Assembly: GCA_910587405.1 (NCBI GenBank)
Contig: CAJUKS010000003.1
Coordinates: 125,268-189,267, forward strand
DNA: 64,000 nucleotides
Source of the DNA: an uncultured Alphaproteobacteria bacterium
GTDB taxonomy: Bacteria > Pseudomonadota > Alphaproteobacteria > RF32 > CAG-239
Reading direction: 5' to 3'
Positions 3,526-64,000 of the stretch are shown in pieces. Every line of letters begins with the position of its first letter. Positions within the stretch are counted from its first letter, which is position 1. The notes under the pieces were generated by a model. That model did no database searches, was not told the DNA's origin, and saw only the letters and a program-made list of their open reading frames with translations. The position numbers and the translations under genes were made by a program.

Positions 3526-3805
3526 AAAACGATCCTTTTTTTGTGACAGGTAAAGATACAATTTCATTTGATTCATTTAAAAAAATAAATTGTGGATTTC
3601 TAATGAGTTATGATTGTTTTCTAAACAAGAAAAATATAAAATAAAGTTGTCACAAAAAAAGGATCGTTTTTTTGATACACTTTTTATTTGTGTCAATAAC
3701 GGCATAACTTATTGATAATTTTAGAATTATCTTGAAATTTATGGGCAATTGCTGTACTCTTTGCCTGTATCAAAAAAACGATCGTTTAAATTTAAAAGGA
3801 AAGGA
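3526..3805. promoter_or_regulatory. Conserved 5' regulatory cassette of autotransporter paralogue 1: A7-GGATCG-T7 palindrome (3648-3680), inverted copy of its left arm (3530-3548) and proximal half-site TGTATCAAAAAAACGATCG (3767-3785)
   Basis: Same TGTATC-A7-GxxTCx-T7-GATACA element found upstream of the other two autotransporter paralogues. Confidence 0.5.
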
Positions 3806-6530
3806 ATGGGCTTTGACTGAAAAAAGATATCTCTTGTTATCTTGCGCAGCGTTTTTTTTCGGGATGACGGAAATGGCGGTTGCTGCGGATATTATAAATC
3901 AACATTATGCAGAAAAATCGAGCGGTACCTATGGTGTGGGCGGGGCATTGACTTTTGCGCCGCCGGAAGTTTCTTTGATAAAAGACTCTTCGTTTACAAA
4001 TAACAGGTCACTCATCGGCGGTGCCGTTGTCAGCCGAGGCCATATCACCTCCGTCAGCAACAGTATATTTCAGGGAAACACTTCCGAAACGGGTGGCGGC
4101 GGCGCTATTTACAGTCAGACGCTTCCCGGTCACGAAGATGTCAATTCCGGCGGAATTGATAAAATCAGCAACGTTCAGTTTTTAGGAAATTCGGCGGCCG
4201 GTTTCGGCGGCGCTGTTTTCCATCTCTCGCATCGGAATGTGTTGGTTGAAAATAGCATTTTTGAAGGCAATCACGGCGAGAAGGGCGGCGGCGCTTTCAA
4301 CAGCGGACAATATGAAGGGCAGGGCGCTGCCGTTACCATGGTTAATAACCAATTCCGAAACAATACTTCCGGCCGTGTCACCGACGGTACTTTCGGCGGC
4401 GGTGCCATAAGACTTGATTCGGGATCGGTTATTTTCAAAGGCAACAACGTTTTTGAAAATAATAAGGACCCTGAAAGAAACAATGACATCAATGTTCAAA
4501 GCGGTTCGGTGATTGTGGCCGAGTCGGCTGTGGTTACGCTGGACGGCGGCATTATCGGTAATGGTAACACCGTCATTGAAAAAGGCGGACAAATTAAAGT
4601 GGAAAACACGGCCAATGCCACCACTTTCGGCAATCAGACCGAAAACAATGGTACCATAACCGTCAACAAAGAAAAAGCAGCCGATGTTTTGGCCGAATTT
4701 ACCAACAACGGACAGATTGCCAATCAGGGAGATTTTGCCGTTCAGGGGACCGGAACGCTGGTTCTGAACCGGGGAATTGACGGAAGCGGTCGGACAACCG
4801 TCAGCGAAGGCGGGCGGCTTGTGGCCAATGCTGCCGGTGTGGCGATGCAAAATGCGTTAATCAACAACGGTACCGTTAATATTGATAAAGACAAAAGCCT
4901 GATCCTGAAACAGGACAGTGTCAATAACGGCACCATTGACAATAACGGACTTCTGGCCGTCAACAAATCTTTGCTTCTCCGCAGTTCGATCCAAGGCGAA
5001 GGGACAGTGTCGGTTAACAACGGCGCCATGCTTGATATTGCCGGAAAAGACGCCCAGGTTGCCAACAATATTGACAATCGCGGTATTTTGCGTGTCAGCG
5101 AGAATTCTCAACTGACGGCCGAACGGGAAATTGCCAACCACAAAGTTATTGTTAACCGCGGCGTCATCCATAACAACGGTGCCCTTTTGTTAAACGGCGG
5201 TTCATCGGTCGAAATGGGGACCGATGCGGTGTTCAATACCAAAGAACTCCGGGCTTCGGGGCTGCCGCAGTTGAAACTGAACGTTGAGACCGACACCGTC
5301 GCCGATACGATTCGTCACGGTATTATCAATGTGGACGGTGACGTTACGGGCAACACGGATGTTGTTTTGAAATTTACGGATGACAACCTGTTGACAAATC
5401 CCGAAACCGTCAAAAGCCTTTTCGTCAATGCGCCGCAGGACAATGCCGAAACTTCGGCCGCATTTAATGTGGTGCGGGTCGAAAAAAGTCCGTATATGTG
5501 GGTGGCTCAGTCCGAGGCCGGTGAAGGCGATCAGGGTACGGCCTGGTATCTGACGGTTAATACGCTGGTGCCGGAAACGCCGGATTCCCTGGTTGTGGCG
5601 CCGGAAGTCGTCGCGGCGGCCGGAATGCACGAAGCAGCGCTGGAACAGACGCGCAGCGTGCTTCGCAATTTGAACGGCAAGCTGGCTTCCGGACGGGAAT
5701 ATTGTCCGAATTGCGGCATATATTCGCAGGAGTGGGACGGACGTCCGTTGCATAATTTGTGGATTAGCGCCCAGGGCGAAACCGCCGGTATTGACAAGCC
5801 GGTTGACATGGATGCCGACATTTGGGGCGTGGAAGCCGGTTTTGACCTCCAAAACGACGTTAACAACACCTTTGGCGTTTTTGCTTCTTATCGCAACGGC
5901 GAGTACGATCTTTCGGGACGCGGTGCCAAATTGCATGCGCTTTCCGGCAGCAAAATTGATATCGACTCTTATCTGGCCGGTCTTTATTACCGTTACGACA
6001 AAAACATGAACTGGTTGTTTGCCGGCATATACGGCGGTATGCAGCGGGCAGACGTTAAAACGGACGACGGAATTGCCAAGTTTGACAGCGACGGCGTAGA
6101 ATTCGGCGCCGGGATAGAGGCCGGACATACTTTTGCTTTGAACAGTGATCTGACCCTGAGTCCGTCGCTGGGGATTTATTATACCCAGATTGATTTTGAT
6201 TCCGCTGCCGATAACGTTGGCAAAAGATATGACTGGAGTGACGTCAAACATCTGGAGGCCGAGTTTGGCATCAAGCTGGAAAAACAAATCGATACGGCGA
6301 AGATTTATGTAAAACCGAGCGTTATTCACACTTTAACCGATGATGACGAAGTAAAAATCAGCGGTTACGGCAAAGCCGACACTTATCACGATCAGACTTT
6401 GGGTCGGATAGAGTTGGGCGGCCGTTACGGTTTCAATGATGCGGTGTCGGGTTATGGCTGGACCAACTATACTTTTGGTTCGGGATATGACAACGTAACT
6501 TTGGGCGCCGGCCTGAGTTATGCCTGGTAA
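3806..6530 (+). CDS. Autotransporter (type Va) with Pmp-type GGAI/FxxN repeat passenger and C-terminal beta-barrel translocator; paralogue 1
   Basis: RBS aaaggaaagga before ATG 3806; signal peptide; repeated GGAIxN and FxGN motifs; C-terminal ~280 aa homologous to barrels of the two other paralogues; ends in W. Confidence 0.8.
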
Positions 6531-30681: not shown

Positions 30682-30709
30682 CTGTTAAAAAACGAATGGT
30701 TGCTTATAA

Positions 30710-30740
30710 AAAATTCCCCGATTTTCGGGGAATTTTTTTG
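30710..30740 (+). terminator. Rho-independent terminator aattccccg/cggggaatt + T7
   Basis: Perfect hairpin and T-run after malQ. Confidence 0.6.
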
Positions 30741-30756: not shown

Positions 30757-30925
30757 GCATCAAAAAAAGGATCATTTTTTTGATACAGACAAATCGTACA
30801 ACAAAGGAGAATTAAATTCAAGAAGATTGTGAGATTATCAATAGGTTAGGAAAAAAACGAAAAAGCAGCAAAATGTATCAAAAAAATGATCGTTTAACGA
30901 TTGTAATTTAAAATTGAGGAATAAG
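30757..30925. promoter_or_regulatory. Conserved 5' cassette of autotransporter paralogue 2: palindrome ATCAAAAAAA-GGATCA-TTTTTTTGAT (30759-30784) plus proximal half-site TGTATCAAAAAAATGATCG (30874-30892)
   Basis: ~80 bp between the two elements is near-identical to locus 3. Confidence 0.55.
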
Positions 30926-33880
30926 ATGAGAAACACGAGACTATCGGCGGCGGTTCTGCTGCTGTCCGCCACTTTTCTGACTGCCCCGGCTGTAGGGCAG
31001 GTCTATACGCCGACTCTGGGCAACAACAGCGCTTTTACAATCAATCAAATTTCTGAAACCGATTATGACGAAACCAATCCGGAGATGTTTGTCGGTTATC
31101 GGCTGGACGGTGAGGGAAAACCGGTAAAAGATTTTTATCGTATCAATTTGCGCAGTGACAAAACCTATACGGTCGAATACAAAGACAAAGTAAATACACG
31201 AGAGGAGACCGGGGCCGAATTTACATTTGACGGCGGTGCTTTGTCGGTTGCTGACGGCGAAAATAACGGGAATATTGTCGGCGCTCTTTTTCGAAATAAC
31301 GTAACAAATGTACAATTGACCGGTACCGAGAAAAAAAATACAGTTACAGTCAGGGGCGGCGGGCTCTATAACGAAGGTGTGATTGAAAACCTGCAGGCCG
31401 ATTTTATCGGCAATAACGCGCATGCCCAAATTATTATTAAACAAGGTGACGGTCATGTCAGAGCTTATGGAGGAGCCATTTATAACAGCGGCTATATCGA
31501 AAATATAGAAGGCGACTTTATCGGCAACAAGGTTAATGCGGATTCAACTTTTTCTGGTGGCGGTAGTGCTGCAATATCGGCAGAAGGAGGTGCTGTTTAT
31601 AATGAAGGCTGGATAGACAACATTAAAGGCGATTTCATAAGTAATCAGGCCCGGTCGAGTGGGGGTGCAATTACAATTGCAAAAGAGGGATATATTGAAA
31701 AAATTGAAGCTGATTTTATCAATAACAGTACTTTCGGTTTAAACACTATAGGCGGTGCTATTTCCGTTAAAGGAGAAGTTAAAGAAATTTACGGCAATTT
31801 TATTAATAATACAACCACTGTCGACGGCGGTGCCATTGTTATTGTAAGTAACGGCAGTGATAACGGTACCGTCGGAAAGATCAGCGGCAATTTTATCGGC
31901 AACAATGTAAAAGGTTACCTTGGTTATTTACGCGGCGGCGCAATTGCCATCCGTCATGGGGACACCTCTCCGGTTATTGATGCCGACTTTATCAATAATT
32001 ATGCTGTTAATACCCGGGTGCTTTCCGGAGCCGATGCTCAGGCGCGTCCTGTTGCGACCGGCGGCGCAATAGATACGTCGGCTGATACGACCTTTGTTGC
32101 CGATAATGTCAATCATGTATTCAGCGGTAACTACACGCTGGATAAATTCGGAAAGGAATACAATGCGTTATTTGTAAATTCCAGTTTTAAACCGACCATA
32201 AGTTTCAATACCGCCCATAACGGACAATGGATTATTAATGACAGTATTAAAGGGGGACTTAACAGAGTTAGCAGTCTCAAATATGATAATCAGTACAATC
32301 TGTCATTTAGCGGAGACGGCAGCGGAACGATATGGATTAATAACGACATCATCAATGCCGACAGTATTAAGGTTGAGAACACAACCCTCCGTTTTGGCGC
32401 TTATCGGCATGATGACCAAACAGCCACCAACTGGAACGGCCACGGCCGGATTGTCAACGGTGTTAACGGGCGTGATCCGGTAACTTCGTTGTCACTGCTG
32501 AAATCAAATTTGGATTTGTTTAATCACTATCAGGATACGATTGAACTGAAAGATTATCTCGCGGCGAGCAGTTTTGTGCATTTGGACGTTGATGTGGAAA
32601 ATTTGAGTGCCGACATGCTAAAGGTTAACGGCGATGTGGCCGGTACCACCAAACTGATTCTTTATCCGAACTCCAATAAAGATATCCGCGGCCAGTCAAT
32701 TGTATTTGCAACGTCACAGAATGATACCACCGGCGATAAGTTCTCATTTGTCGTCTCGCGTGTTTATACCAGCCCGTATATGTTTGATGTTGTTTATCAT
32801 CAATTGGGGGAAGGGGAGAATCAATGGTCGTTGGTGATGAACGAAGAGGTTAATCCGGATGCGGATGAGAAACCGGATGTTCCCGAGGTTCCGGATATTC
32901 CTGTCAAGCCGACACCTGCGGTTGACTATCGCAAAGTGGCGCCGGAAGTGATTGCCTATCAGGGCTTGCCGGTAGCGGCGTTGGAACAGACCAAAGGCAT
33001 GATCGGCAACATCGGCCGCCAGGTTCAGAACGGACGCGTCAGTTGTGAGAAATGCGGCGTTAAGGATTACTACTGGAACGGCAAAGCTTATCACACTCTG
33101 TGGGCGAACGTGGTTTATCAAACTTCGGAAAACGAAGCGTTGGTTAATGTTGACGCCGACGTTTGGGGCATTGAAGCCGGCGGCGACTTGCAACATGATC
33201 TCAACAACAAGCTGGGATTGTTCGTATCTTATCGCAAAGGCAACTATGATATGAACGGTAAGGGTAAATACTATTACTCGACCGTCGGATCGGAAATCGA
33301 TATCGACAGCTATCTCGCCGGTTTGTACTACCGTTATGACCGTAACCACTGGTGGACTTTTGCCACCGTATACGGCGGCATTCAGAGAGTTGATCTGAAG
33401 ACCAAAGACGGCATCAAGTCGGATACCGACGGTACCGAGTTCGGCGGCAGCGTCGAGTTGGGTTATGACTATAACCTGTCTAAAACCCTGTACCTGACCC
33501 CGAGTGTGGGTGCCTTCTATACTCAACTCAATTACGGAGATGCGAGCGACAGCGCCGGTAAAACCGCTGAGTATGGTTTACTGCGCCAGTTGGAACTCGA
33601 AGCCGGGGTTAAACTGACGAAAGCGTTCGTAACGGACGAAGGCTATGCCAACGTTTATGTCAAACCGAGTGTTGTGCAAACCCTCAACGGCGGCGACGAA
33701 GTCAAAGTCAGCGGTCTGAGAGAAATCAACACTTTAGATGACCAGACGTTGGGCCGGATTGAACTCGGCGGCCGTTACGGCTTTACCGAACAGTTGTCGG
33801 CGTATGGCTGGGCCAACCACACCTTCGGCGACGACTATAAAGCCTCGACCTTCGGTCTCGGTTTAAGTTACAGTTGGTAG
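30926..33880 (+). CDS. Autotransporter with Pmp-type GGAI/FxxN repeats, Pro-rich linker and C-terminal beta-barrel; paralogue 2
   Basis: RBS gagga; signal peptide MRNTRLSAAVLLLSATFLTAP; many GGAIxN/FIGN repeats; barrel ~85-90% nt identical to paralogue 3. Confidence 0.8.
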   Translation: MRNTRLSAAVLLLSATFLTAPAVGQVYTPTLGNNSAFTINQISETDYDETNPEMFVGYRLDGEGKPVKDFYRINLRSDKTYTVEYKDKVNTREETGAEFTFDGGALSVADGENNGNIVGALFRNNVTNVQLTGTEKKNTVTVRGGGLYNEGVIENLQADFIGNNAHAQIIIKQGDGHVRAYGGAIYNSGYIENIEGDFIGNKVNADSTFSGGGSAAISAEGGAVYNEGWIDNIKGDFISNQARSSGGAITIAKEGYIEKIEADFINNSTFGLNTIGGAISVKGEVKEIYGNFINNTTTVDGGAIVIVSNGSDNGTVGKISGNFIGNNVKGYLGYLRGGAIAIRHGDTSPVIDADFINNYAVNTRVLSGADAQARPVATGGAIDTSADTTFVADNVNHVFSGNYTLDKFGKEYNALFVNSSFKPTISFNTAHNGQWIINDSIKGGLNRVSSLKYDNQYNLSFSGDGSGTIWINNDIINADSIKVENTTLRFGAYRHDDQTATNWNGHGRIVNGVNGRDPVTSLSLLKSNLDLFNHYQDTIELKDYLAASSFVHLDVDVENLSADMLKVNGDVAGTTKLILYPNSNKDIRGQSIVFATSQNDTTGDKFSFVVSRVYTSPYMFDVVYHQLGEGENQWSLVMNEEVNPDADEKPDVPEVPDIPVKPTPAVDYRKVAPEVIAYQGLPVAALEQTKGMIGNIGRQVQNGRVSCEKCGVKDYYWNGKAYHTLWANVVYQTSENEALVNVDADVWGIEAGGDLQHDLNNKLGLFVSYRKGNYDMNGKGKYYYSTVGSEIDIDSYLAGLYYRYDRNHWWTFATVYGGIQRVDLKTKDGIKSDTDGTEFGGSVELGYDYNLSKTLYLTPSVGAFYTQLNYGDASDSAGKTAEYGLLRQLELEAGVKLTKAFVTDEGYANVYVKPSVVQTLNGGDEVKVSGLREINTLDDQTLGRIELGGRYGFTEQLSAYGWANHTFGDDYKASTFGLGLSYSW

Positions 33881-40808: not shown

Positions 40809-40894
40809 TGTAGCATACGGGTAAAAAAATACCAGTGAAAAATTACCTTAATGTTAATTATGTCATTTTTTTTGATAAATCATAAAAAAAATAC

Positions 40895-40923
40895 TTGCAA
40901 TAAAAAAAAATGTTAGGTATAAG
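40895..40923 (+). promoter_or_regulatory. Sigma70-like promoter TTGCAA-N17-TATAAG for tRNA-Asp
   Basis: Hexamers and spacing close to consensus; tRNA begins ~18 bp downstream. Confidence 0.35.
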
Positions 40924-40940: not shown

Positions 40941-41017
40941 GGGGGTGTAGCTCAGCTGGTTAGAGCGCCTGCCTGTCACGCAGGAGGTCGCGGGTTCGAG
41001 TCCCGTCACTCCCGCCA
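40941..41017 (+). tRNA. tRNA-Asp (anticodon GTC)
   Basis: Cloverleaf: acceptor GGGGGTG/CACTCCC, D-arm GCTCAGCTGGTTAGAGC, anticodon loop CTGTCAC, T-arm GCGGGTTCGAGTCCCGT, CCA encoded. Confidence 0.9.
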
Positions 41018-41055
41018 TTAAAAAGCCGTCCGCAAGGACGGTTTTTTTGTGGCTT
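40998..41055. repeat. Direct repeat copy 1 (58 bp): 3' end of tRNA-Asp plus its terminator
   Basis: Identical to 41254-41311. Confidence 0.8.
41021..41050 (+). terminator. Rho-independent terminator ccgtcc-gcaa-ggacgg + T7 after tRNA-Asp
   Basis: Perfect hairpin and TTTTTTT. Confidence 0.6.
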
Positions 41056-41253
41056 CAGGTGTGCGCACTCGAATCCGCGACCTGGTCGCGGGCTCGAGGA
41101 TAAAAACAGCCGCTGCTCCGGCTGTTTTTACCGCAAGAGGCGTAGTTTTGTCGGCTTTTTGAGGCGGCAAAACGCCGCTAAAAAGCATACAAAACAAGTG
41201 ACCGCAACGAAGTTATCGAACTTATGCAATAAGTGAGATTTACGCAGTAAGAC

Positions 41254-41311
41254 GAGTCCCGTCACTCCCGCCATTAAAAAGCCGTCCGCAAGGACGGTTT
41301 TTTTGTGGCTT
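41254..41311. repeat. Direct repeat copy 2 (58 bp): duplicated tRNA-Asp 3' end plus terminator (att-like)
   Basis: Perfect copy 256 bp downstream of copy 1; the spacer contains an inverted tRNA T-arm-like palindrome (41064-41100) and another hairpin (41103-41135). Confidence 0.8.
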
Positions 41312-41495
41312 GGTATGGGCGCACAATTAAAACACATCCGGGACGTTCTAACAATTACTGAAGCTGCTTTTGCATTTTTTGTTTTTTTTCGGTTAACCTT
41401 ACGGACAAAAAAAACTTCCGGAAGATCGGGTAAAACATTTGACCTTTTGTCTAAAATGTGTCATACTAATTACATATTTTATTAAAATAGTAATT

Positions 41496-42338
41496 ATGAA
41501 GAAAATTATCATCAGCTCATGCTTCGGTCATGAAATCATGGCAGTGGCGATCGCCAAGTCTATGAACCTTTCTGTCGTTATCGTTCCCAACAAGGACAAT
41601 GCCGACGAGTTTAACAAAGAAAGCGAAAACATCCTCGTCAAGATGCTTCCGTTCTACTCCGCGTTGGAAACCGTTTCTTTCGAGGAGAAGGAGACGGCAC
41701 TGGCTGAGGGATGGGATGTCGTTCGTGAACTGAAAGAGGGTCGTTTCGACGCTTCTCTGTGGTTCAAGATGGCATCCTCCAGGTTGACGCCTTCTTTCGA
41801 AGGACTCCGCCGCTATCGGCAGTTGGAGGACAGGTTTAATGTTCTCTTCGTGCCGCAAAAGCTGAAGAGCGACGGCGAGTGCGGTGTTACGGCTGCTCAG
41901 CAGTCTCTCAACCCGCAGGTTCTGGCTTTCATGAAAGGCCTTGCCAACCTGGTGCTGGGGCAACACTTTCACAAGGTTAACGATTTGGAAACAGTCGAAG
42001 CCTTGGCGAAAGAGTTTGATCTCTATGTACCGGGTCAGACCGAGAACCAGGAAGTGTTCGGAATTCGCGGCGTGGCTCATGCCGAGTATTTCAACATGTA
42101 CCGCAATCTTGACGCTTCGGTCGGAATCGCCGGTACGCACACCTGGATCATGCTCGCGCTCTTCCCGGAAATCCCGCAGATCATTCTGTTTAACAGAAAC
42201 GGCGTGGAAAACTGGAAAGACATCGAAGCAGCCTATCAGAAGGCGGGTTACCGCATTTTCTGTATCGGTTTCGATGAAAACAGCGACATGGGTGAACTGA
42301 GCAAGGAGATCGAAGAGACTTACAAGAAGCTCTTCTAA
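41496..42338 (+). CDS. Hypothetical GT-B-fold-like protein (distant heptosyl/glycosyltransferase-like C-terminal half), atypical codon usage
   Basis: C-terminal GQTE...ASVGIAGTHTWIMLALFPEIPQIILF resembles the GT9 donor-binding region; Phe TTC clearly preferred over TTT unlike neighbouring core genes. Confidence 0.45.
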   Translation: MKKIIISSCFGHEIMAVAIAKSMNLSVVIVPNKDNADEFNKESENILVKMLPFYSALETVSFEEKETALAEGWDVVRELKEGRFDASLWFKMASSRLTPSFEGLRRYRQLEDRFNVLFVPQKLKSDGECGVTAAQQSLNPQVLAFMKGLANLVLGQHFHKVNDLETVEALAKEFDLYVPGQTENQEVFGIRGVAHAEYFNMYRNLDASVGIAGTHTWIMLALFPEIPQIILFNRNGVENWKDIEAAYQKAGYRIFCIGFDENSDMGELSKEIEETYKKLF

Positions 42339-44392: not shown

Positions 44393-46420
44393 ATGAAAAT
44401 ATCGGGTAAAATTTGGGCGGTGTGCATGCTGCTGGTGTGCGGCTGCCTTTGGAGTGCCGGCAACGTATCGGCCAAGGTCTGTTTCGTCGGCGATTCCGAT
44501 TGTGCCGGCGGTGCCGACTTCGGGGACGGATATACCGACGACAGTGAGGATCTTTGTAAAGACGTCAAGGATGCCAACGGTAAATTGATGTATCAAAAAG
44601 CGCCGTGTCCGGCCAAGAGCCATGTTTCGGCAGTTTGTCCTTATAATGCCGCTTATGTGCAGTGTTGCGGCGATTCGTATGCTTATTCGACCTGCCCGTA
44701 TCCTTTGGAGAGCGTGGGACGCTGCGGCAACAGTTATAAATGCGCCTGTCCCAAAGAGAAGTTTCCTTATGCTTCCTGTCTCTCACCGACGATTCCCGGA
44801 GGCATCAATTGTCTGCAAATTGACGATGACAGCAAGACAACCAGTATTCATTATGAAAAATGCGTCTGTGATCCCGGTCTTTATCCCTATAAACAAAACA
44901 GCGACTGCGACGATAATCAGATTGTCGATCCCAAACGTACCTGTACCGATACCGACGGCGGCACTTTCTACTATCGCTGCAAATGTCCGGACAGCTGGAG
45001 TACCTGCGCCAGTATGGACGGGCAGGGGGCAATCGGCGCCAGGAAATGTTACAGCGACGGCAACACTTACCACAGTCAGTGTTGCGAATGCCCTTCGCCG
45101 TTTGAACGTTCGATGAACGATCCCTATGCAACCGATTACGAATATTGTCCCTGCAACAATAATTTCCGCAAGGCTTCGGGATGTAAGTTCGGTTACAAGG
45201 TTGATAACGGCCGTTGTATTGAAATGACCTGCGGTGATGCCCTGAAAGCTTTATTTGACAGCAGCAGCGCTTACGCGTCATATGGTTTGTACACCGGGAA
45301 CGCTCTGAGCCAGAAGACTCTGATTGTCGGTGATGACGTGTCTTCGGCCAGCTGGTCTCATTTTGCGGGTAAAACCGTGATGTCCGGTGCCGCCTTTGTC
45401 AGAAAGCTGAACGGCAGCAACAATTATATTAAGAATGTTCAGGAAAAATGTACCAACAGCATTCCGACGATTCAGTTTACATACAGTAGTTCCAATATTA
45501 CCGGAACTCAAAACTTTACTTCGGTCATTTTGAAGTATACTTCAAGCTTGTGGAACAAAGGGTCGTTTACCTGTACCAACTGCGGTATCGAATTCTGGAA
45601 GCTGTACAATACGGATAGCGGCGCCACGGTTAATCTGGCCTACAATTCAAATATGCCGAATGTCGACAATATGTATGTTAATGCAACCGGTATTGAAATT
45701 TCCAAGCCCTATCGTTCGGTCGGTTATAATTATCAGGTCGGCAGTTTGGGGACCAAAATTACCAACTACGGCGGCAACGGCGCGCATGTGATTATGTTTG
45801 AAGGCAAAAGCAACTCCAACCGTATGGCCTTTAACGGCGACTATCTGACGGTTAACGGTTTGGCGGCAATGAAATATGCCAACGTTCGGGTCGGACAGAC
45901 CTGTATCGGTACCAACTGTTCGTACGGAAGTTCTTCCGGAGTTTATTTCAATCCGGGTGACGTATGCAATACCAGCAGCACGTTGTCTTTATACTATACC
46001 AACTACTATCTGTACGAAGCCGGAACGGTAAGGACGGTTCATATGTCGACTTCCACCATGTTGGGTAAAGAAAACGACGGTACGGTATCGATTGTTTTCA
46101 GTGATGCCAGCTACAATACCCTGACTTTCTCCCAGTTGTGGAAATATTGCAGCAAACGCCCGGGCTGTGCGTATCGTTACATTACTTCCTACGGTTCGGT
46201 CAGCAGTCGTACGATGGATTGCGGGTATTATTCGCAGTCGGTTCGTGACGGCGAAAAGCACTCCAAACCCGACGATGCCCGTTGCAAGATCGACGGTAAC
46301 AATAACCAGTATGGTTTTGCTCAGGCAAGTTCGGCCGGATGTAACTGGCGCGACGGTGACGGCTCTGACCGTACGCCTTATTTCCAGCTGAACGGTCAGC
46401 GCGGATGGTCGCGAAACTGA
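44393..46420 (+). CDS. Secreted cysteine-rich protein (675 aa): signal peptide, ~260-aa N-terminal domain with ~34 Cys, then Asn/Ser/Thr/Tyr/Gly-rich beta-type C-terminal domain
   Basis: RBS aaaggggaaggg; Cys patterns CxCP, CCxC, CKCP repeated; no known bacterial family recognised. Confidence 0.7.
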   Translation: MKISGKIWAVCMLLVCGCLWSAGNVSAKVCFVGDSDCAGGADFGDGYTDDSEDLCKDVKDANGKLMYQKAPCPAKSHVSAVCPYNAAYVQCCGDSYAYSTCPYPLESVGRCGNSYKCACPKEKFPYASCLSPTIPGGINCLQIDDDSKTTSIHYEKCVCDPGLYPYKQNSDCDDNQIVDPKRTCTDTDGGTFYYRCKCPDSWSTCASMDGQGAIGARKCYSDGNTYHSQCCECPSPFERSMNDPYATDYEYCPCNNNFRKASGCKFGYKVDNGRCIEMTCGDALKALFDSSSAYASYGLYTGNALSQKTLIVGDDVSSASWSHFAGKTVMSGAAFVRKLNGSNNYIKNVQEKCTNSIPTIQFTYSSSNITGTQNFTSVILKYTSSLWNKGSFTCTNCGIEFWKLYNTDSGATVNLAYNSNMPNVDNMYVNATGIEISKPYRSVGYNYQVGSLGTKITNYGGNGAHVIMFEGKSNSNRMAFNGDYLTVNGLAAMKYANVRVGQTCIGTNCSYGSSSGVYFNPGDVCNTSSTLSLYYTNYYLYEAGTVRTVHMSTSTMLGKENDGTVSIVFSDASYNTLTFSQLWKYCSKRPGCAYRYITSYGSVSSRTMDCGYYSQSVRDGEKHSKPDDARCKIDGNNNQYGFAQASSAGCNWRDGDGSDRTPYFQLNGQRGWSRN

Positions 46421-46809: not shown

Positions 46810-48057
46810 ATGAAAACTAACAAATTCTGGTTCGCAACGGCAGCAGCTGCCCTTGTAACCGTTATCTGCGTGTTCACCTCCTGCAGCAAGGAAGACGAGC
46901 CTTTCCTGCCAGAAGTGATCGAAAGTGAAGTTCTTGAAACCGGCATCAGCAATGACGTCAACGAGGTTTCCGGAACCGAAGGTACCAAACTGAGCTACGA
47001 ATCCTGGATTGTGGTCAAGGGACAAACCCGCGCCGCTTTCGAGAACAAAGTCTCCGTTACTCTCTGCAATCAGTTGAACAATCTTGAGACGGAAATTGAC
47101 GTTAAAGAGTTCAATTTCGGTCAGGTCAGGACCAGTATTACCTATGGTGTCGGCGACGGCAGCCGAACGGACGGATTTGTTCAAATTGCGGATTCTGTCA
47201 TGTTTTATAACGTGGAATATGACAATTTCTCATTTGCATTTGAACTTCCCTTCGAAGTGGCTGTTTACAACGACAAAGTGACCCGGCAGACGATGCCTTA
47301 TCATCGTTACGGAAACATTGTCGACAAGGGCAGCAGCGTTAAAGATCTGGAGATCGAAGTCGAAGATATCGGCAAATGGCAGAACGTCCGTGTGCGTAAA
47401 CTCTACCAACATGACATCTCGGTGGACTTTAACGGCAAAAGCTACGACCTCACGGCAAAGATTATCTTGAAAAAGACTTTGCAGACCAACGGTGAAAATA
47501 CGGTGTTGAAATGTGAACTGATTGATTCCGGAACAGAAGTTTTGCTCAACGAAGAGAGCAGCACCATGTACAAATCATGGATTAAGGTAAAACAGACGAT
47601 GCTCAACGGCAGTACGCGCGAACAAACCTATACGGTTGACGACATGTACGGATCTTTGGATCACGAACTGTTGGACTTTAAGAAGCTTCAGGACAAAAAC
47701 ATTATGCAACAAAACGCTTCGGTTATCGATGTTGACGACGTCGTCATCTCGGCCGGCGATGTTGTTTATGTGCATAAAGTCGAGCGCAGTTATGTTGTCG
47801 ATTACAACTATTTTTCGTTAAACTTCAAACTGCTGCACAACGAAGCCTACTATGATGACGGCATTACGACAATCAAATTCCCGTCCTTTAAGCACGAGAA
47901 TTTTGCGGACGAAGGCAAGTTAACCTTTGTCGGTGACTTTGTCGACGGTGGTTTTGAGTTTTCCGAATATTGGTTTGCTCATACGATTACGGCTGATTTC
48001 GGTTCGGTGAAACATACCGGATTACGTGATTTTCAGGTGATTACGCCCAAGCAATAA
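46810..48057 (+). CDS. Lipoprotein of unknown function (415 aa), atypical codon usage
   Basis: Signal peptide plus lipobox VFTSC; TTC/ACC/TCC/AAG/GAG-biased codons unlike core genes. Confidence 0.6.
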   Translation: MKTNKFWFATAAAALVTVICVFTSCSKEDEPFLPEVIESEVLETGISNDVNEVSGTEGTKLSYESWIVVKGQTRAAFENKVSVTLCNQLNNLETEIDVKEFNFGQVRTSITYGVGDGSRTDGFVQIADSVMFYNVEYDNFSFAFELPFEVAVYNDKVTRQTMPYHRYGNIVDKGSSVKDLEIEVEDIGKWQNVRVRKLYQHDISVDFNGKSYDLTAKIILKKTLQTNGENTVLKCELIDSGTEVLLNEESSTMYKSWIKVKQTMLNGSTREQTYTVDDMYGSLDHELLDFKKLQDKNIMQQNASVIDVDDVVISAGDVVYVHKVERSYVVDYNYFSLNFKLLHNEAYYDDGITTIKFPSFKHENFADEGKLTFVGDFVDGGFEFSEYWFAHTITADFGSVKHTGLRDFQVITPKQ

Positions 48058-57081: not shown

Positions 57082-57252
57082 CTGTATCAAAAAAAGGTTC
57101 GTTTTTTTGATACAGGCAAATCGTACAACAAAGAAGAATTAAATTCAAGAAGATTGTGAGATTATCAATAGGTTAGGAAAAGTCTTTCTGCATAATAAAT
57201 TGTATCAAAAAAACGAACGTTTAACGATTATAATTTAAAATTGAGGAATAAT
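57082..57252. promoter_or_regulatory. Conserved 5' cassette of autotransporter paralogue 3: 14-bp-arm palindrome CTGTATCAAAAAAA-GGTTCG-TTTTTTTGATACAG (57082-57115) plus proximal half-site TGTATCAAAAAAACGAACG (57201-57219); TATAAT at 57229-57234
   Basis: Near-identical to locus 2 cassette except GATC core replaced by GTTC/GAAC. Confidence 0.55.
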
Positions 57253-60200
57253 ATGAGAAAGACTAGACTATCGGCGGCGGTTCTGCTGCTGTCCGCCACT
57301 TTTTTAAGTACGCCGACAATTGCCGTTTCTTTAACGCCGACTTTGGGAGAAAACAGTACGTTTTCGTATAACGAAGGTTCGGCAGGTGATTATAACTTTA
57401 CATTAAAGGAAGCAGATGCAGACGGCAAACTCACGACCAAATATTATAAAGTTGATCTGAAACCGGAAATCTTTGCAACTTCTCCGCGCATTAGTTGGAC
57501 TGCGGTGAGCGAAGATCAAAAAGATGCTGCCGACGTGGTAGAAATCAAATTGCCGAACGATCAGACAAAGTATTTCAAATATGCGTATGTTAGTTTAACA
57601 GGTGATGAACTTGTACATAAAGAACCGCTAAATTTTGAAATTGAAAGTGTCGGTTCGACGGTCACCCAATCTGGCGGAACGGCGATTAATAATACAAGTG
57701 ATTATGGAAATTTAGAAGGTAAGGTATTTAGTGAAAATGAGGCCGTTGCGTTGGTTAAAAATGCCCGCTATTTCTACTTGCAAGGAGGATCTGTCTATAA
57801 CAGCGGCAGTTTTGGAAGTGTGGCGGCAGATTTCATCGGCAATTCTGTTGTAGTAAATGCTCAGAACGATGGGTATATGTATGCTCAAGGCGGAGCCATT
57901 TATAATGCCGGTCATATTGCTTCTGTTAACGGAGATTTTGCCGGCAACTTTGCCGATGATCGGGATACGGGAGTATATCTTCATAAACAGTCATATTCTC
58001 AAGGCGGTGCAATTTACAATGTTGGAACCATAGATGAAATGAATAGTAATTTTGTGGGAAATTATACTTCCAGTTCGGGATCAAGTTACTATTTTTATTC
58101 TCAAGGCGGTGCGATTTCCAACAGTGGGGTCATCGGAAACGTTGTAGGACATTTTATCGGAAATTATGCTTATGGTTCCAATACTTATTCCAACACCAGT
58201 TATTTTTCCGGGAGTCAGGGCGGTGCCATTTATAATACCAATACGATGGGTAATATTAGCGGTGATTTTATCGGCAACTATGCTTATAGTTCCGATCAAA
58301 GCGGCGAGTCCGGAGGCGGTGCCGTTTATAATACCGGTACGATCGGCAATATTAGCGGTGATTTTATCGGCAACTATGCTTATAGTTCCAATCCGGGCAG
58401 TACGGCTCGCGGTGGTGCGGTCAGTAACGGCAATAAGACGATCAACGGTATCTCTGGCAATTTTATCGGTAACTACGTTTATTCTGCAAATAGCGAAGCG
58501 GAAGGCGGTGCGATTTATAATGTTAATAGGAATCAGGCAGCTATAGGCGATATTAACGGCAGTTTTTTGAATAACTATGCGCAAACTTTGTCAGACAAAG
58601 AATTTGCTCTTGGCGGGGCGATTCATACAAATAATAATTTAACCTTTTTTTCTGACAAAAATACAAATTTTCTTTCCGGAAACTATACTCTGGATAAAAG
58701 AGGAAAAATCTATAATGCAATCTTTATTAATATCCCAAGAGAAGGTAAAAATGACAAAGCGCAGAATTTACTTACTTTGAAAACCGGCAATGAAGGAAAA
58801 ATAGTCATTAACGATAATATTGTCGGTGCTCATATAAATGACAAAAGCCTTGCAGAGGTAGGAATATCGTTTGGGGAGTATGCTTTGCCCTTTAACTTAA
58901 CACTTACCGGTGATGACACCATTGATGCGGATACGGGTACGACAACCCAGTATGTTGCAATCAATAATGATATTATCAATGCGGGAACGGTGACGGTTAA
59001 CGGTACCACCTTGCGTTTTGGCGCTTTTCAGCACGAAGACCGGACGGCCAAGAACTGGGACGGCAAAGGGGCTTTTGTTGCCTCGCTGAACGCCGACGGT
59101 ACCGCCAACCGCGACGCTGCCGCAGTGACGAGCTTGTCGTTGAATAACGGTGTGTTTGATATTGCCAACGGCTATCAGGAAACCGTCAAGCTGAAAGGCT
59201 ACTCGGCGACCGACAGCTTTATGCATATCGACGTTGATCCCGATAATATGAGCGCGGATATGTTGAATGTTAACGGCAATGTCGAAGGCGTCACCAAGCT
59301 GATTGTTCACGCTTCGTCTGATGCCGATATCCGCGGCAAGGGAGAAATTCTGTTTGCGCAATCGGAGAATGATACGACCGGTAACGCGGGTTCGTTCGTG
59401 GTCTCGCGTGTTTATAAGAGTCCGTATTTGTTTGATGTTAAATACAATCAAATTGCCGACAACAGCAACAAATGGTACTTTGAGATGAACGATCAGCCGA
59501 ATGAAGAACCAAAAGAACCGGAAAAGCCCGACGTTCCCGATGTTCCTGATGTTCCGACGCCGCCGACCCCGGAACTGCCGGATATTCCGCCGGTTAAGCC
59601 GCAGCCGTTGCCGGGCAGCGACCGTCCGGTAGCACCGGAAGTGATTGGCGCCGAATCTCTCCCCGCGGCTGGTTTGGCTCAGACCTCCAACATGATCTAC
59701 AACATCATGCAGAAAGTGTCTTCAAACCGTTTCTACTGCCCCGGTTGCGGTTTCTATGATTACTACTGGAACGGCGAAGCCTTCCACAATCTGTGGGCAA
59801 ACGCGGTTTACAATACGCTTCGCATCAAGACGCCGACCGATATCGACGCCGAGGTCTGGGGTTTAGAGGCCGGCGGCGACCTGCAGCATGATCTCAACAA
59901 CAAGCTGGGTCTGTTTTTGTCCTACCGCAAAGGTAATTACGACATGAACGGCGACGGCAAGCATCATTACTCGACGATCGGATCTGAGATTGACATTGAT
60001 TCGTATCTTGCCGGTCTGTATTACCGTTATGACCGTAACCACTGGTGGACTTTTGCCACCGTATACGGCGGCATTCAGAAAGTTGATCTGAAGACCAAAG
60101 ACGGCATCAAGTCGGATACCGACGGTACCGAGTTCGGCGGCAGCGTTGAGTTGGGTTATGACTATGCGATCAACAAAACCCTGTACCTGACCCCGAGTGT

Positions 60201-60573
60201 CGGCGCCTTCTATACTCAGGTTGATTACGACGACGCCACCGACAGTGCCGGCAAGGTTGCAAAGTACAACACCTTGCGTCAGCTGGAGTTGGAAGCCGGC
60301 GTCAAACTGACGAAAGCGTTTGTAACGGACGAAGGCTACGCCAACGTTTATGTCAAACCGAGTGTTGTCCGCACCATTACCGACGGTGACGAGGTTCGGA
60401 TCACCGGTTTGGACAAAGTCAACACTTTGGATGACCAGACGCTGGGCCGGGTTGAAATTGGCGGCCGTTACGGCTTTACCGAACAGTTGTCGGCCTATGG
60501 CTGGGCCAACCACACCTTCGGCGACGACTACAAAGCCTCGACCTTCGGTTTGGGTCTCAGTTACAATTGGTAG
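57253..60573 (+). CDS. Autotransporter with Pmp-type GGAI/FxxN repeats, Pro-rich linker and C-terminal beta-barrel; paralogue 3
   Basis: Signal peptide MRKTRLSAAVLLLSATFL (identical nt block to paralogue 2); >12 GGAIxN/FIGN repeats; barrel homologous to paralogues 1-2. Confidence 0.8.
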   Translation: MRKTRLSAAVLLLSATFLSTPTIAVSLTPTLGENSTFSYNEGSAGDYNFTLKEADADGKLTTKYYKVDLKPEIFATSPRISWTAVSEDQKDAADVVEIKLPNDQTKYFKYAYVSLTGDELVHKEPLNFEIESVGSTVTQSGGTAINNTSDYGNLEGKVFSENEAVALVKNARYFYLQGGSVYNSGSFGSVAADFIGNSVVVNAQNDGYMYAQGGAIYNAGHIASVNGDFAGNFADDRDTGVYLHKQSYSQGGAIYNVGTIDEMNSNFVGNYTSSSGSSYYFYSQGGAISNSGVIGNVVGHFIGNYAYGSNTYSNTSYFSGSQGGAIYNTNTMGNISGDFIGNYAYSSDQSGESGGGAVYNTGTIGNISGDFIGNYAYSSNPGSTARGGAVSNGNKTINGISGNFIGNYVYSANSEAEGGAIYNVNRNQAAIGDINGSFLNNYAQTLSDKEFALGGAIHTNNNLTFFSDKNTNFLSGNYTLDKRGKIYNAIFINIPREGKNDKAQNLLTLKTGNEGKIVINDNIVGAHINDKSLAEVGISFGEYALPFNLTLTGDDTIDADTGTTTQYVAINNDIINAGTVTVNGTTLRFGAFQHEDRTAKNWDGKGAFVASLNADGTANRDAAAVTSLSLNNGVFDIANGYQETVKLKGYSATDSFMHIDVDPDNMSADMLNVNGNVEGVTKLIVHASSDADIRGKGEILFAQSENDTTGNAGSFVVSRVYKSPYLFDVKYNQIADNSNKWYFEMNDQPNEEPKEPEKPDVPDVPDVPTPPTPELPDIPPVKPQPLPGSDRPVAPEVIGAESLPAAGLAQTSNMIYNIMQKVSSNRFYCPGCGFYDYYWNGEAFHNLWANAVYNTLRIKTPTDIDAEVWGLEAGGDLQHDLNNKLGLFLSYRKGNYDMNGDGKHHYSTIGSEIDIDSYLAGLYYRYDRNHWWTFATVYGGIQKVDLKTKDGIKSDTDGTEFGGSVELGYDYAINKTLYLTPSVGAFYTQVDYDDATDSAGKVAKYNTLRQLELEAGVKLTKAFVTDEGYANVYVKPSVVRTITDGDEVRITGLDKVNTLDDQTLGRVEIGGRYGFTEQLSAYGWANHTFGDDYKASTFGLGLSYNW
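58222..58410. repeat. Intragenic 96-bp tandem repeat (2 units) within passenger domain of paralogue 3
   Basis: 42-bp identical cores at 58252-58293 and 58348-58389. Confidence 0.6.
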
Positions 60574-62119: not shown

Positions 62120-64000
62120 TGCAGTCAACGGCTATCAAAGAGGCGCTGGGCATTTTGAAACAGCTGCGACAGATTATGGAAACGCCGGAAAGCGTACCGG
62201 AAAAACTGCGCCGTATTCTCGAGACCATTTCTGCCAAAATGCAGGCGGATGCCGCCACCTGTTATGTGGCGGTTGACGATAATTATCTCGAATTGTTTGC
62301 CGCCTGCGGTTTTAAAAAAGCGTCGTCGCACCGGCTGCGCCTGCGCTATAACGAAGGGATGGCCGGCGAAGTGGCGGAAAGTCGGCGCTCGCTGGTAATC
62401 AACAACATTTGGATGTATCCGAAATTTGTTTCCAAGCCTGAGCTGCTGGAAGAAAAAGATTTCCAGTCTTTTATCGGTGTGCCGGTCTTGCAATGGAACC
62501 GTACGATCGGCGTGCTGGCTTTGTATAACGCGCGCGAAATCGACCGGTCGGAAGTGGATATTGAGCTGTTGGAAACCATTGCGATGGTTTTGGCCGAGAT
62601 TCTGGCTTCCGAAGAAATGACCCAATATAAGAAATCGCTGATCAAGTCGCGCGGGATGAGCACCAAGGAACGGGTAAAGGGGCTCAGTCTTAACAAAGGC
62701 TACGGTATCGGCGATGCTGTGGTTCACCGGCGTCGCCAGTCGGTAACCAACATTTTTGCCGAAGACAGGGAAAAGGAACTGCGCCGGCTGGAAATTGCAC
62801 ACCATCAAATGAACGAAGATTTGGACGCCAAATTTAATTCGACCAAACTCGGTCTCGGCGAGCATATCGATATTTTGGATGCTTACCGGATGTTTGCCAA
62901 AGACAAGGGCTGGTACGGCAAAATCGCCGGCAATATTCGCGGCGGTTTGGCGGCGGAAGCGGCAGTGGAACGCGCGTATGAAGACATGTGGAACCGTTTG
63001 TCGCAAAGCAGCGACAGCTATTTGCGCGAACGTCTGCATGATTTGCGCGACGTGGCCGACCGTTTGCAGTCTTATCTGAGCGGCGATTATAAACAGGCGC
63101 CGGATATCTCGGCCAAGGACATCGTGATTGTCGCCCAAACCATGGGACCGGCGGAACTGATGGATTATGACTACAGCCGGATCCGCGGACTGATCATTGA
63201 AGACGGCACGCCGACCATGCATGTGGCGATTGTGGCCAAGGCTTTGAATATTCCGGTACTGGCAAAGCTGAAGGGAATTTTCGGCGAGATTCAGAACGGA
63301 CAGACGGTGGCGCTGGACGGTAATGAAGGGTTTGTGTATGTTAACCCTTCTCCGCAGGTGGAAACGGAATTTCGCAAAAGAATCGCCGAACGGGAAGAGT
63401 TGCAAAAGAAGCTGGCGGCGTTGCGGAATTTGCCGGCCCGGACGCTGAACGGTGCGGATATCGGACTCTATATTAATGTCGGGTTGCCGATGGATTTTGA
63501 CTATATCGAAACCACGAATTGTGACGGTGTCGGTTTGTATCGGACCGAAATTCCGTTTATGGCTTCGGAGGCGATGCCCGATGTCGGAAAACAGGTTTCT
63601 TATTACAAGGACCTGATGGATCGTTGCGGGGACAAAAGAGTCGTTTTTCGCAGTCTGGACGTCGGTTCGGATAAACTGCTGCCGTATTGGGCTTATTCGG
63701 GCGAAGCCAACCCGGCGATCGGCTGGCGCTCGATCAGAATTACGCTTGACCGGCGGGCGATTTTACGGCAGCAGATTCGCGCTTTTCTGTTGTCGGCGGC
63801 CGGTAAAGAACTGAACGTGATGTTCCCGATGATTTCGGATTTGGCGGAATTTGAAGATGCCAAGGAAACGCTGTTGATCGAGTTGGAAAAAGACAAAAGC
63901 CGGGGGCTGCCGGTTCCGAAAAAAGTCAATATCGGATTGATGATTGAGGTACCGTCGGTGGTGTTTCAGTTGGACGACATCTTGCCGCGGGCCGATTTCG
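62120..64000 (+). CDS. ptsP: Phosphoenolpyruvate--protein phosphotransferase PtsP (EI-Ntr) with N-terminal GAF domain; 3' end beyond window
   Basis: GAF domain then PEP-utilising enzyme domains (GLYRTEIPFM...); the annotated minus-strand ORF 62125-63405 is a shadow frame. Confidence 0.85.

Follow-up and report, generated by a model that had tools for sequence, protein, structure and literature searches.

Introduction

Invertible promoters ahead of adhesin and autotransporter genes are a well known kind of bacterial switch, and their mechanism is ordinary. In Escherichia coli, the fimS segment measures 314 bp and the ipuS segment, which has 7-bp repeats and controls the autotransporter UpaE, measures 260 bp (PMC6083910), while more than 75% of catalogued invertons are shorter than 300 bp (PMC11602134). 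Here we describe a smaller arrangement in a 64,000-nt stretch of DNA (contig CAJUKS010000003.1 of assembly GCA_910587405.1; hereafter, the window) from an uncultured alphaproteobacterium of the RF32 and CAG-239 lineage, where three autotransporter genes each follow a short segment enclosed by inverted repeats with A7 tracts. We conclude, with a probability of roughly 0.85, that each of these genes is preceded by a miniature invertible promoter (inverton), the flipping of which probably turns the gene on or off. The arrangement resembles that of fimS, hyxS and ipuS, which belong to tyrosine recombinases of the FimB/FimE family, in that a short promoter segment would lie between inverted repeats upstream of an adhesin or autotransporter gene.

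In Mycoplasma penetrans, the mpl genes (P35 family) are said, in work by Horino and colleagues from 2003, to carry an invertible promoter each, within an element of ~135 bp with 12-bp repeats. Promoter inversions that control the polysaccharides of Bacteroides fragilis are described as being governed by Mpi, a serine invertase that acts globally (Coyne et al. 2003, as cited in PMC11602134). An inverton of Akkermansia muciniphila is located near two autotransporter-domain proteins and its orientation shifts over time in vivo, as seen with PhaseFinderDC; the coordinates printed in that study give repeats of ~17 bp with ~160 bp between them (PMC11892184). The hix sites that are recognized by Hin are 26 bp long, and neighbouring segments are flipped in an array engineered as hixC-segment-hixC-segment-hixC (PMC2427008), whereas the natural Hin segment spans ~1 kb and includes a Fis-bound enhancer (PMC2427008, PMC3798978). 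A literature search found no earlier description of an inverton in the lineage studied here.

Results

Three autotransporter genes share a cassette of inverted repeats

The three genes are identified as autotransporters by a Pfam match to PF03797 and are paralogues with 32–48% identity. Their passenger domains have no Pfam match, and the label "Pmp-like", which an earlier note on this DNA had given them, is likewise without Pfam support. The start of the first gene, placed at 3806 in that note, falls on an ATG that is out of frame and followed by a stop after four codons; the start is instead the TTG at 3813, which was also chosen by the gene callers in a related assembly (L026).

Within the window, A7-GGWTCN-T7 was found seven times against 0.08 expected, and TGTATCAAAAAAA with up to two mismatches 18 times against 5.7 expected, its exact copies being confined to the three autotransporter loci. 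All motifs of the palindrome module described in the earlier note are thus present above chance ahead of all three genes, and no Rfam family was found for the cassettes. A match to TTTATCAAAAAAA at 40867–40879 was set aside, being located in the promoter region of a tRNA-Asp gene and part of no cassette.

The distal site of each locus has the 32-bp form TGTATC-A7-GGWTCN-T7-GATACA. The palindromes proposed for these positions exist at all three loci, but only that of locus 3 is perfect, locus 1 having TGTCAC and locus 2 TGCATC as the left arm. The proximal site, of the form TGTATC-A7-YGAWCG (3766–3784, 30874–30892 and 57201–57219), had been taken for a separate half-site. Rather, it pairs with the right arm of the distal site as an inverted repeat of 22 nt, which is 95% complementary and perfect over 18 bp in loci 1–3, and the distance between the paired repeats is exactly 86 nt in all three loci. 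The additional inverted copy reported for locus 1 was recovered (3526–3548 versus 3648–3670), where outer site A and the left arm of the central palindrome form a 23-bp inverted repeat around a further segment, X. The distal sites are laid out as 13-6-13, with two 13-bp arms (the first being TGTATC-A7) around a 6-bp core (NGAWCN). In the proximal sites, a core of 6 bp is flanked by one perfect arm and by an outer arm, TTWAAATKCATTT, that is degenerate yet conserved. The features are as follows (window coordinates; integration host factor is abbreviated IHF).

3526–3548, plus strand: locus 1 outer site A, AACGATCC-T7-GTGACA, with core CGATCC at 3530–3535
3549–3647, no strand: locus 1 segment X, invertible, 99 bp, found in both orientations among assemblies
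3648–3679, no strand: locus 1 central 32-bp palindrome, TGTCAC-A7-GGATCG-T7-GATACA, common to X and Y
3680–3765, plus strand: locus 1 segment Y, invertible, 86 bp, putative promoter predicted to face the gene
Elements of segment Y: −35 TTGAAA at 3732–3737; −10 TACTCT at 3755–3760; IHF consensus at 3705–3717 (minus strand)
3766–3797, plus strand: locus 1 proximal site, inner arm TGTATC-A7, core CGATCG at 3779–3784, degenerate outer arm TTTAAATTTAAAA
3813–6530, plus strand: autotransporter paralogue 1, 905 aa, TTG start, PF03797, gene call in L026
30756–30787, no strand: locus 2 distal 32-bp site, TGCATC-A7-GGATCA-T7-GATACA
30788–30873, minus strand: locus 2 invertible segment, 86 bp, putative promoter predicted to face away from the gene
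Elements of the locus 2 segment: −35 at 30816–30821; −10 at 30793–30798; IHF consensus at 30836–30848 (plus strand)
30874–30905, plus strand: locus 2 proximal site, TGTATC-A7-TGATCG and degenerate outer arm
30926–33880, plus strand: autotransporter paralogue 2, 984 aa, PF03797
57083–57114, no strand: locus 3 distal 32-bp perfect palindrome, TGTATC-A7-GGTTCG-T7-GATACA
57115–57200, minus strand: locus 3 invertible segment, 86 bp, putative promoter predicted to face away from the gene
Elements of the locus 3 segment: −35 at 57143–57148; −10 at 57120–57125; IHF consensus at 57163–57175 (plus strand)
57201–57232, plus strand: locus 3 proximal site, TGTATC-A7-CGAACG and degenerate outer arm
57253–60573, plus strand: autotransporter paralogue 3, 1106 aa, PF03797

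The sequence between the sites, first described as a spacer of ~80 bp common to loci 2 and 3, is indeed shared by these loci, but is also present in locus 1 as the reverse complement. In this orientation, segment Y agrees with the locus 2 segment at 53/86 positions and with the locus 3 segment at 52/86 (ungapped and in register), a level that none of 5000 shuffles reached (mean ~27 ± 4; 27.6 ± 3.7), whereas the match in direct orientation (29/86) is not significant. Together with the 86-bp repeat geometry and the matched cores described below, this reverse-complement homology shows the loci to be built like invertible segments, locus 1 being in the opposite orientation to loci 2 and 3.

The segments occur in both orientations among related assemblies

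For locus 1, public assemblies were found through the flanking proteins, which are 100% identical. One of them (L026) carries X and Y as in the window, with the predicted promoter of Y facing the gene, two (L027 and L039) carry both segments inverted and two (L038 and L040) carry Y alone inverted, so that three of the four possible states are represented in six assemblies of the same species, the window included. When 3549–3647 and 3680–3765 are flipped in silico, the window becomes identical to L027 over 500 nt bar one single-nucleotide polymorphism, and the boundaries of the flip can slide without effect by 18 bp for Y and by 23 bp for X, which are the lengths of the respective repeats. Orthologues of locus 1 from two other species add further state combinations, X being inverted in one (L009) and oriented as in the window in the other (L013). 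Locus 1 is a tandem pair of segments, X (99 bp) and Y (86 bp), that share the central palindrome and flip independently. On its minus strand, X has a weak TTTAAA-17-TATCTT (by eye) that points away from the gene in the window, and its similarity to Y is weak and local; it looks like a degenerate relative of the promoter segment, and we treat it as such rather than as a proven copy.

For locus 3, assemblies were found through ribosomal protein L19. In a sister lineage, two assemblies (L029 and L036) carry the segment as the exact reverse complement, without a single mismatch, of that in two others (L030 and L035). The repeats at this locus consist of GATCG-T7 only. The GTATC hexamer, present at a single end, changes sides together with the segment, and the crossover is thereby located to the A7 tract or core. 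Taken together, these comparisons show, at the level of assembled sequence, that the segments invert, and the module is phase variable, as had been suggested as a possibility, in the sense that its segments are seen in both orientations among assemblies.

The sister-lineage segment itself (10600–10730 in L029, L030, L035 and L036) is an unrelated sequence of ~100 bp with repeats of 12–13 bp, and its cores are 121 bp apart, compared with 118 bp in the standard cassette. To judge from these spacings, the length of the loop seems to be constrained more than the sequence of the segment.

A putative promoter of fixed geometry lies within the segments

Alignment of 15 distinct 86-bp segments required no gaps. 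On the strand that faces the gene in locus 1 of the window, all 15 contain TTGAnn-17-TAnnnT, with invariant TTG and TA...T, and the spacer is exactly 17 nt long and variable in sequence. The −35 forms are TTGATC, TTGAAT, TTGAAA and others, and the −10 forms TACGAT, TACCAT, TACTCT, TAATAT and others. The −10 ends 5 nt before the repeat, such that the predicted transcription start falls near the G or A of TGTATC. Unrelated segments of the L019 type and the L029 type, as well as X, show this geometry by eye. We note that the tRNA-Asp gene of the window is preceded by TTGCAA (40895–40900)-17-TATAAG (40918–40923), indicating that a promoter of this type is in use in the genome. By contrast, a match in a sigma70 scan, GTGTCA-18-GATAAT, which is seen in locus 1 only and is not conserved in the other cassettes, was dropped. 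The information profile is highest in a block upstream of the −35, which contains the IHF consensus WATCAANNNNTTR. This consensus is found at the same position in 11/15 segments, and with one mismatch in the other four; it is the consensus of E. coli, and three of its five matches in the window fall within the 258 bp of cassette segments.

Several observations weigh against an invertible promoter at each gene. The hexamers match the consensus at 4/6 positions each, and those of loci 2 and 3 fall below the threshold of the sigma70 scan, while the assignment of the IHF site depends on the E. coli consensus. In addition, an opposed, extended −10-like sequence, TGnGATTAT, is visible by eye on the other strand in ~11/15 segments, and the ON/OFF polarity is consequently not proven. 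Loci 2 and 3 of the species itself were each seen in one orientation only in 7/7 assemblies, namely the window and six others (for locus 3, six of the window's type). Moreover, no recombinase gene was detected by Pfam among essentially all long open reading frames (ORFs) of the window, no PF00589 or PF00239 was listed within ±10 kb of the three loci in the gene tables of related assemblies, and none was found in 551 kb of retrieved loci that were screened only with motif regular expressions and with phmmer, using Hin, XerD and FimB probes. The weak matches that this last screen returned were spurious, one of them being NusG.

On the basis of the conserved hexamers, it appears reasonably likely that locus 1 of the window is ON and that loci 2 and 3 are OFF. 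The converse, in which the inversion is real but the orientation of loci 2 and 3 is ON via the extended −10 and locus 1 of the window is OFF, we consider possible but unlikely; a variant has two divergent promoters, with the flip swapping promoter strength or leader. Such a polarity would account for TG-n-(G/A/T)A(T/A)TAT in those ~11/15 segments (by eye), for a common orientation that is adopted by all 22 cassettes of the scans described below as well as by loci 2 and 3 in their seven assemblies each, and for the gene-proximal 24 nt, which in the common orientation are purine-rich and leader-like. However, the extended −10 is unaccompanied by a −35, its TG is missing in the locus 1 type and the L012 type, and it overlaps the conserved IHF-consensus site, such that binding there would occlude it. 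On the opposite strand, TTGAnn-17-TAnnnT is invariant (15/15) and keeps the same distance to the repeat in unrelated segment types. A majority of OFF states is the usual pattern for phase-variable surface proteins.

It is improbable that the segment inverts without carrying a promoter, so that the flip would act otherwise, for instance by repositioning a site for IHF or a regulator with respect to a promoter that stays in place, or by changing a leader or a terminator. The IHF-like region is indeed more conserved than the promoter hexamers, and in loci 2 and 3 the distal palindrome can form a hairpin (−11.7 to −14.5 kcal/mol) with U-runs on the minus strand. However, U-runs after the palindrome are missing at most other loci, and we therefore retain an OFF-state terminator at this position as a side speculation only. 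Furthermore, no −35/−10 pair was seen in the fixed flanks, and at locus 2 an intrinsic terminator (30708–30738) ends the upstream malQ transcript, leaving the cassette and a leader of ~40 nt as the only room for a promoter.

Cores match within a locus and A7 tracts keep their length

Five core types were found, CGATC, TGATC, GGATC, CGAAC and TGAAC, which differ among loci. Within a locus, core positions 1–5 are alike in the two partner repeats in 12/13 of the window and reference-genome loci and in all metagenome loci except L018, whereas the sixth position differs between partners throughout (C versus G). The exceptions to the core match are L018 and L008, the latter through an A8 shift. Such covariation is as expected if strand exchange requires matching cores, and locus-specific cores could keep each switch from recombining with other loci.

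Individual cassettes depart from this pattern. In L018 (2076–2188), the cores are mismatched, TGATC versus TGAAC, and the site may be a hybrid or locked. In L008 (1389–1500), which is from another species, the proximal repeat has A8 and the outer arm of the distal site A6, this being the sole deviation in tract length among short-read loci. At locus 3 in L034 (ERZ12802904), ~220 nt downstream of the L19 gene, the proximal core is CGAAGG rather than CGAACG, a single C-to-G change that abolishes the core match with the distal site and may leave the switch phase-locked. Two cassettes in the metagenome-assembled genome (MAG) MGBC103387, L007 (2181–2292) and L010 (2872–2983), are identical in the gene-proximal third of the segment, the proximal flank and the gene start and differ in the remainder, a pattern that suggests gene conversion or recombination between paralogous cassettes.

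Tract lengths were read in 21 loci that had been retrieved by protein identity and hence with tract length unconstrained. The distal site has A7/T7 in 19/21 and the proximal site A7 in 19/21, the deviations being limited to two long-read assemblies with many frameshifted genes. The T8/A6 tracts of these assemblies (L028 and L033) were rejected as real variants and attributed to long-read homopolymer errors, since the same contigs carry fragmented secA, ffh and other genes. The slipped-strand change of the A7/T7 tracts that the earlier note envisaged is therefore contradicted by an outcome it had itself named beforehand as speaking against it, and the homopolymer length polymorphism of a simple-sequence contingency locus was not seen in these 21 loci.

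The same note had interpreted the palindromes as operators of a dimeric transcription factor, controlled by Dam methylation and by A7/T7 slippage. The palindromic architecture is common to all paralogues, GATC is present in the cores of loci 1 and 2, and a dimer-binding site is almost certain; nevertheless, we regard this model as very improbable, and the sites as inversion crossover sites rather than operators. It leaves unexplained the exact in-place reverse complement of the 86-bp and 99-bp segments in near-identical strains, and the tracts are 7/7 in all unconstrained short-read loci. Likewise, the difference between GATC and GTTC/GAAC, which had been read as a difference in methylation, covaries between both repeats of a locus: GATC and GAAC alternate among loci and match within each. 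GAAC/GTTC occupies the core in locus 3 and in several other loci of the same architecture, at odds with phase variation of the Dam/GATC type. In Alphaproteobacteria, moreover, Dam is atypical and CcrM acts on GANTC. Neither a Dam gene nor a regulator gene was seen in the window, and the observation that no gene for a cognate protein adjoins the cassettes still stands.

It is scarcely credible that the flipped orientations arose through faulty assembly, or through occasional RecA-dependent recombination between short repeats, rather than from a dedicated switch, even though the evidence for flipping consists of consensus assemblies throughout: the repeats (12–23 bp) are below the k-mer length of assemblers, such that a flipped consensus needs spanning reads; samples and assemblers that are independent of each other (ENA and NCBI) yield identical flips; repeats of 12–18 bp are poor substrates for RecA; and the site sequence, the 86-bp length and the distance to the start codon are conserved across paralogues and species, as would not be expected of a repeat that arose by chance.

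Cassettes are distributed ahead of surface-protein genes in gut Alphaproteobacteria

One scan each of species-representative genomes and of metagenome contigs with the pattern T7GATACA-N76-96-TGTATCA7 returned 10 and 12 loci, respectively (22 matches, some contigs occurring in both collections). All are from MAGs or assemblies of human and mouse gut Alphaproteobacteria (Azospirillum sp. UMGS149; MGBC103387), with five cassettes per reference genome. The segment is 86 bp long in almost all cassettes (range 85–87 bp). Wherever the gene is readable, the cassette lies 11–37 nt upstream of the start of a signal-peptide gene, and the 14 loci that were read encode mostly N-termini of the autotransporter family, together with one Acyl_transf_3 gene. 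This conserved gene context indicates that the element is not a generic repeat, the other outcome that had been named as adverse to a dedicated module; readable copies all lie just upstream of genes for secreted or surface proteins. The proposal of a shared control module dedicated to a surface-protein family is accordingly borne out, every readable adjacent gene being of the secreted or surface type. In the assembly collection, one flanking ribosomal protein was present in 525 blocks.

In the UMGS149 lineage, a cassette with a GGATCC core precedes the gene of an Acyl_transf_3 acyltransferase (L012, 1224–2435; L025), which extends the switched gene set to a likely modifier of surface glycans. 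Two further loci (L015, 1392–1560; L019, 39–180) have an additional promoter-type segment of 85 nt, with TTGAAC-17-TACTTT, between two full palindromes and beside a standard cassette, indicating that multi-segment arrays exist outside locus 1 as well.

On a wider scale, we tentatively suggest, with rather less than even confidence, that the cassettes form a genome-wide phase-variable regulon in this small-genome, uncultured gut lineage. It would comprise at least five loci per genome, with autotransporters and a surface acyltransferase under a single unlinked master invertase. Each minimal switch would hold no more than a promoter and a central IHF bend site in its 86 bp, between A-tract 13-6-13 sites whose cores would insulate it from the others, and some switches would store two bits by means of two segments with a middle palindrome in common.

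A model for inversion of the segments

For the invertible promoter, we propose that a recombinase encoded elsewhere would bind the 32-bp 13-6-13 sites as a dimer, and that strand exchange inside the core would invert the 86 bp that a distal and a proximal site enclose. In the ON state, the sigma70-type promoter of the segment would drive transcription across the proximal site and the ribosome-binding site and on into the gene, the proximal site of locus 1 forming the start of the 5′ untranslated region, whereas in the OFF state it would fire away from the gene. With crossover cores only 118 bp apart, a central bend is a natural requirement, and a sharp, U-turn-like bend of the IHF type would bring the two sites together. 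IHF acts as a bending cofactor at fimS.

We infer that a single unlinked recombinase serves all cassettes; the genes beside the tandem cassettes of L019 and L024 are housekeeping genes. As to its type, we lean towards a tyrosine recombinase, because of the 13-6-13 layout, because five core positions need identity, the core type having changed in concert at least four times, and because of the IHF-like site. The core sites of tyrosine recombinases (lox, FRT or dif type) have two inverted arms around an overlap of 6–8 bp; in keeping with this, the arms here surround a core of 6 bp, and the cores of partner sites are identical at 5/6 positions.

Other features of the window

The tRNA-Asp(GTC) gene (40941–41017) has its 3′ end and terminator (40997–41068) repeated 256 bp downstream at 41253–41324 with 93% identity, which looks like the att-type scar of an integrated or excised element. 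A lone gene of the VirB8 family is located at 488–1267 on the minus strand, and the surrounding ±10 kb hold no further genes for type IV secretion. For several long ORFs, Pfam gave no match even at an E-value of 0.05 (41439–42338, 44393–46420, 46810–48057, 62125–63405 and others). These Pfam-less ORFs are conserved in related assemblies and annotated there as genes, an example being a 415-aa protein encoded upstream of a PPIase gene.

Discussion

The analysis replaces a speculative model of operators, methylation and slippage with DNA inversion, read directly from the alignment of assemblies. Inversion would then be the unit of antigenic or adhesive variation in a common, uncultured gut alphaproteobacterium, in which the autotransporter paralogues can be expressed combinatorially, with a bearing on evasion of IgA and on adhesion within niches. 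The coordinates given here allow ON and OFF states to be quantified at the level of reads in existing metagenomes. In addition, with its small and fixed size of 86 bp, its central IHF-like site and its heterospecific cores, the cassette is a clean natural example of a minimal inverton. If an unusual recombinase does synapse sites that are 118 bp apart, these invertons would rank with the smallest in nature and would offer a compact component for synthetic DNA memory.

The putative sigma70-like promoter of the cassettes matches the consensus at 4/6 positions in each hexamer, as is reported for the promoter of ipuS (PMC6083910). In contrast to fimS and ipuS, the segment here measures 86 bp, or 118 bp from centre to centre. 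The repeats span 18–23 bp and contain A7 tracts, compared with 7–16 bp at fimS, hyxS and ipuS. FimB/E, FimX and IpuA/B are linked to their own switches, whereas the recombinase of the present cassettes is not adjacent and one type of site serves many loci.

In this last respect, the arrangement is closer to that of Mpi in B. fragilis, likewise a gut commensal, where many unlinked surface loci have an invertible promoter each and a shared repeat consensus, and where the recombinase is encoded elsewhere, as would be the case here. The two differ in phylum and promoter type, and the matched 5-bp cores of the present sites point rather to a tyrosine enzyme. The invertible segments of B. fragilis are ~170–230 bp long, and their repeat consensus is unrelated. 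With the mpl genes of M. penetrans, the loci have in common a paralogous family of surface antigens and, on the present reading, a small, private promoter inversion for each gene and the possibility of combinatorial expression, although the genes there encode lipoproteins rather than autotransporters and the site sequence is unrelated.

The hix sites of Hin are similarly palindromic and bound by dimers, and their half-site likewise consists of TATC and then an A-tract, with the 9-mer TATCAAAAA also occurring in hixL. However, crossover at hix involves 2 bp, whereas the sites here are 32 bp long and partner sites match at 5 bp of their 6-bp core, and segments of 86 bp leave no room for an enhancer, which sets them apart from the Hin/Gin type. 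The tandem pair X and Y at locus 1 is, on the other hand, a natural parallel to the engineered hix array. The inverton of A. muciniphila also lies beside autotransporter genes in a gut commensal, but in another phylum and at a single locus, whereas the cassette described here is family-wide. What distinguishes the present system from all of these is the minimal and fixed size of the segment, the A-tract sites of 13-6-13 layout, the locus-specific cores and the tandem version with two segments.

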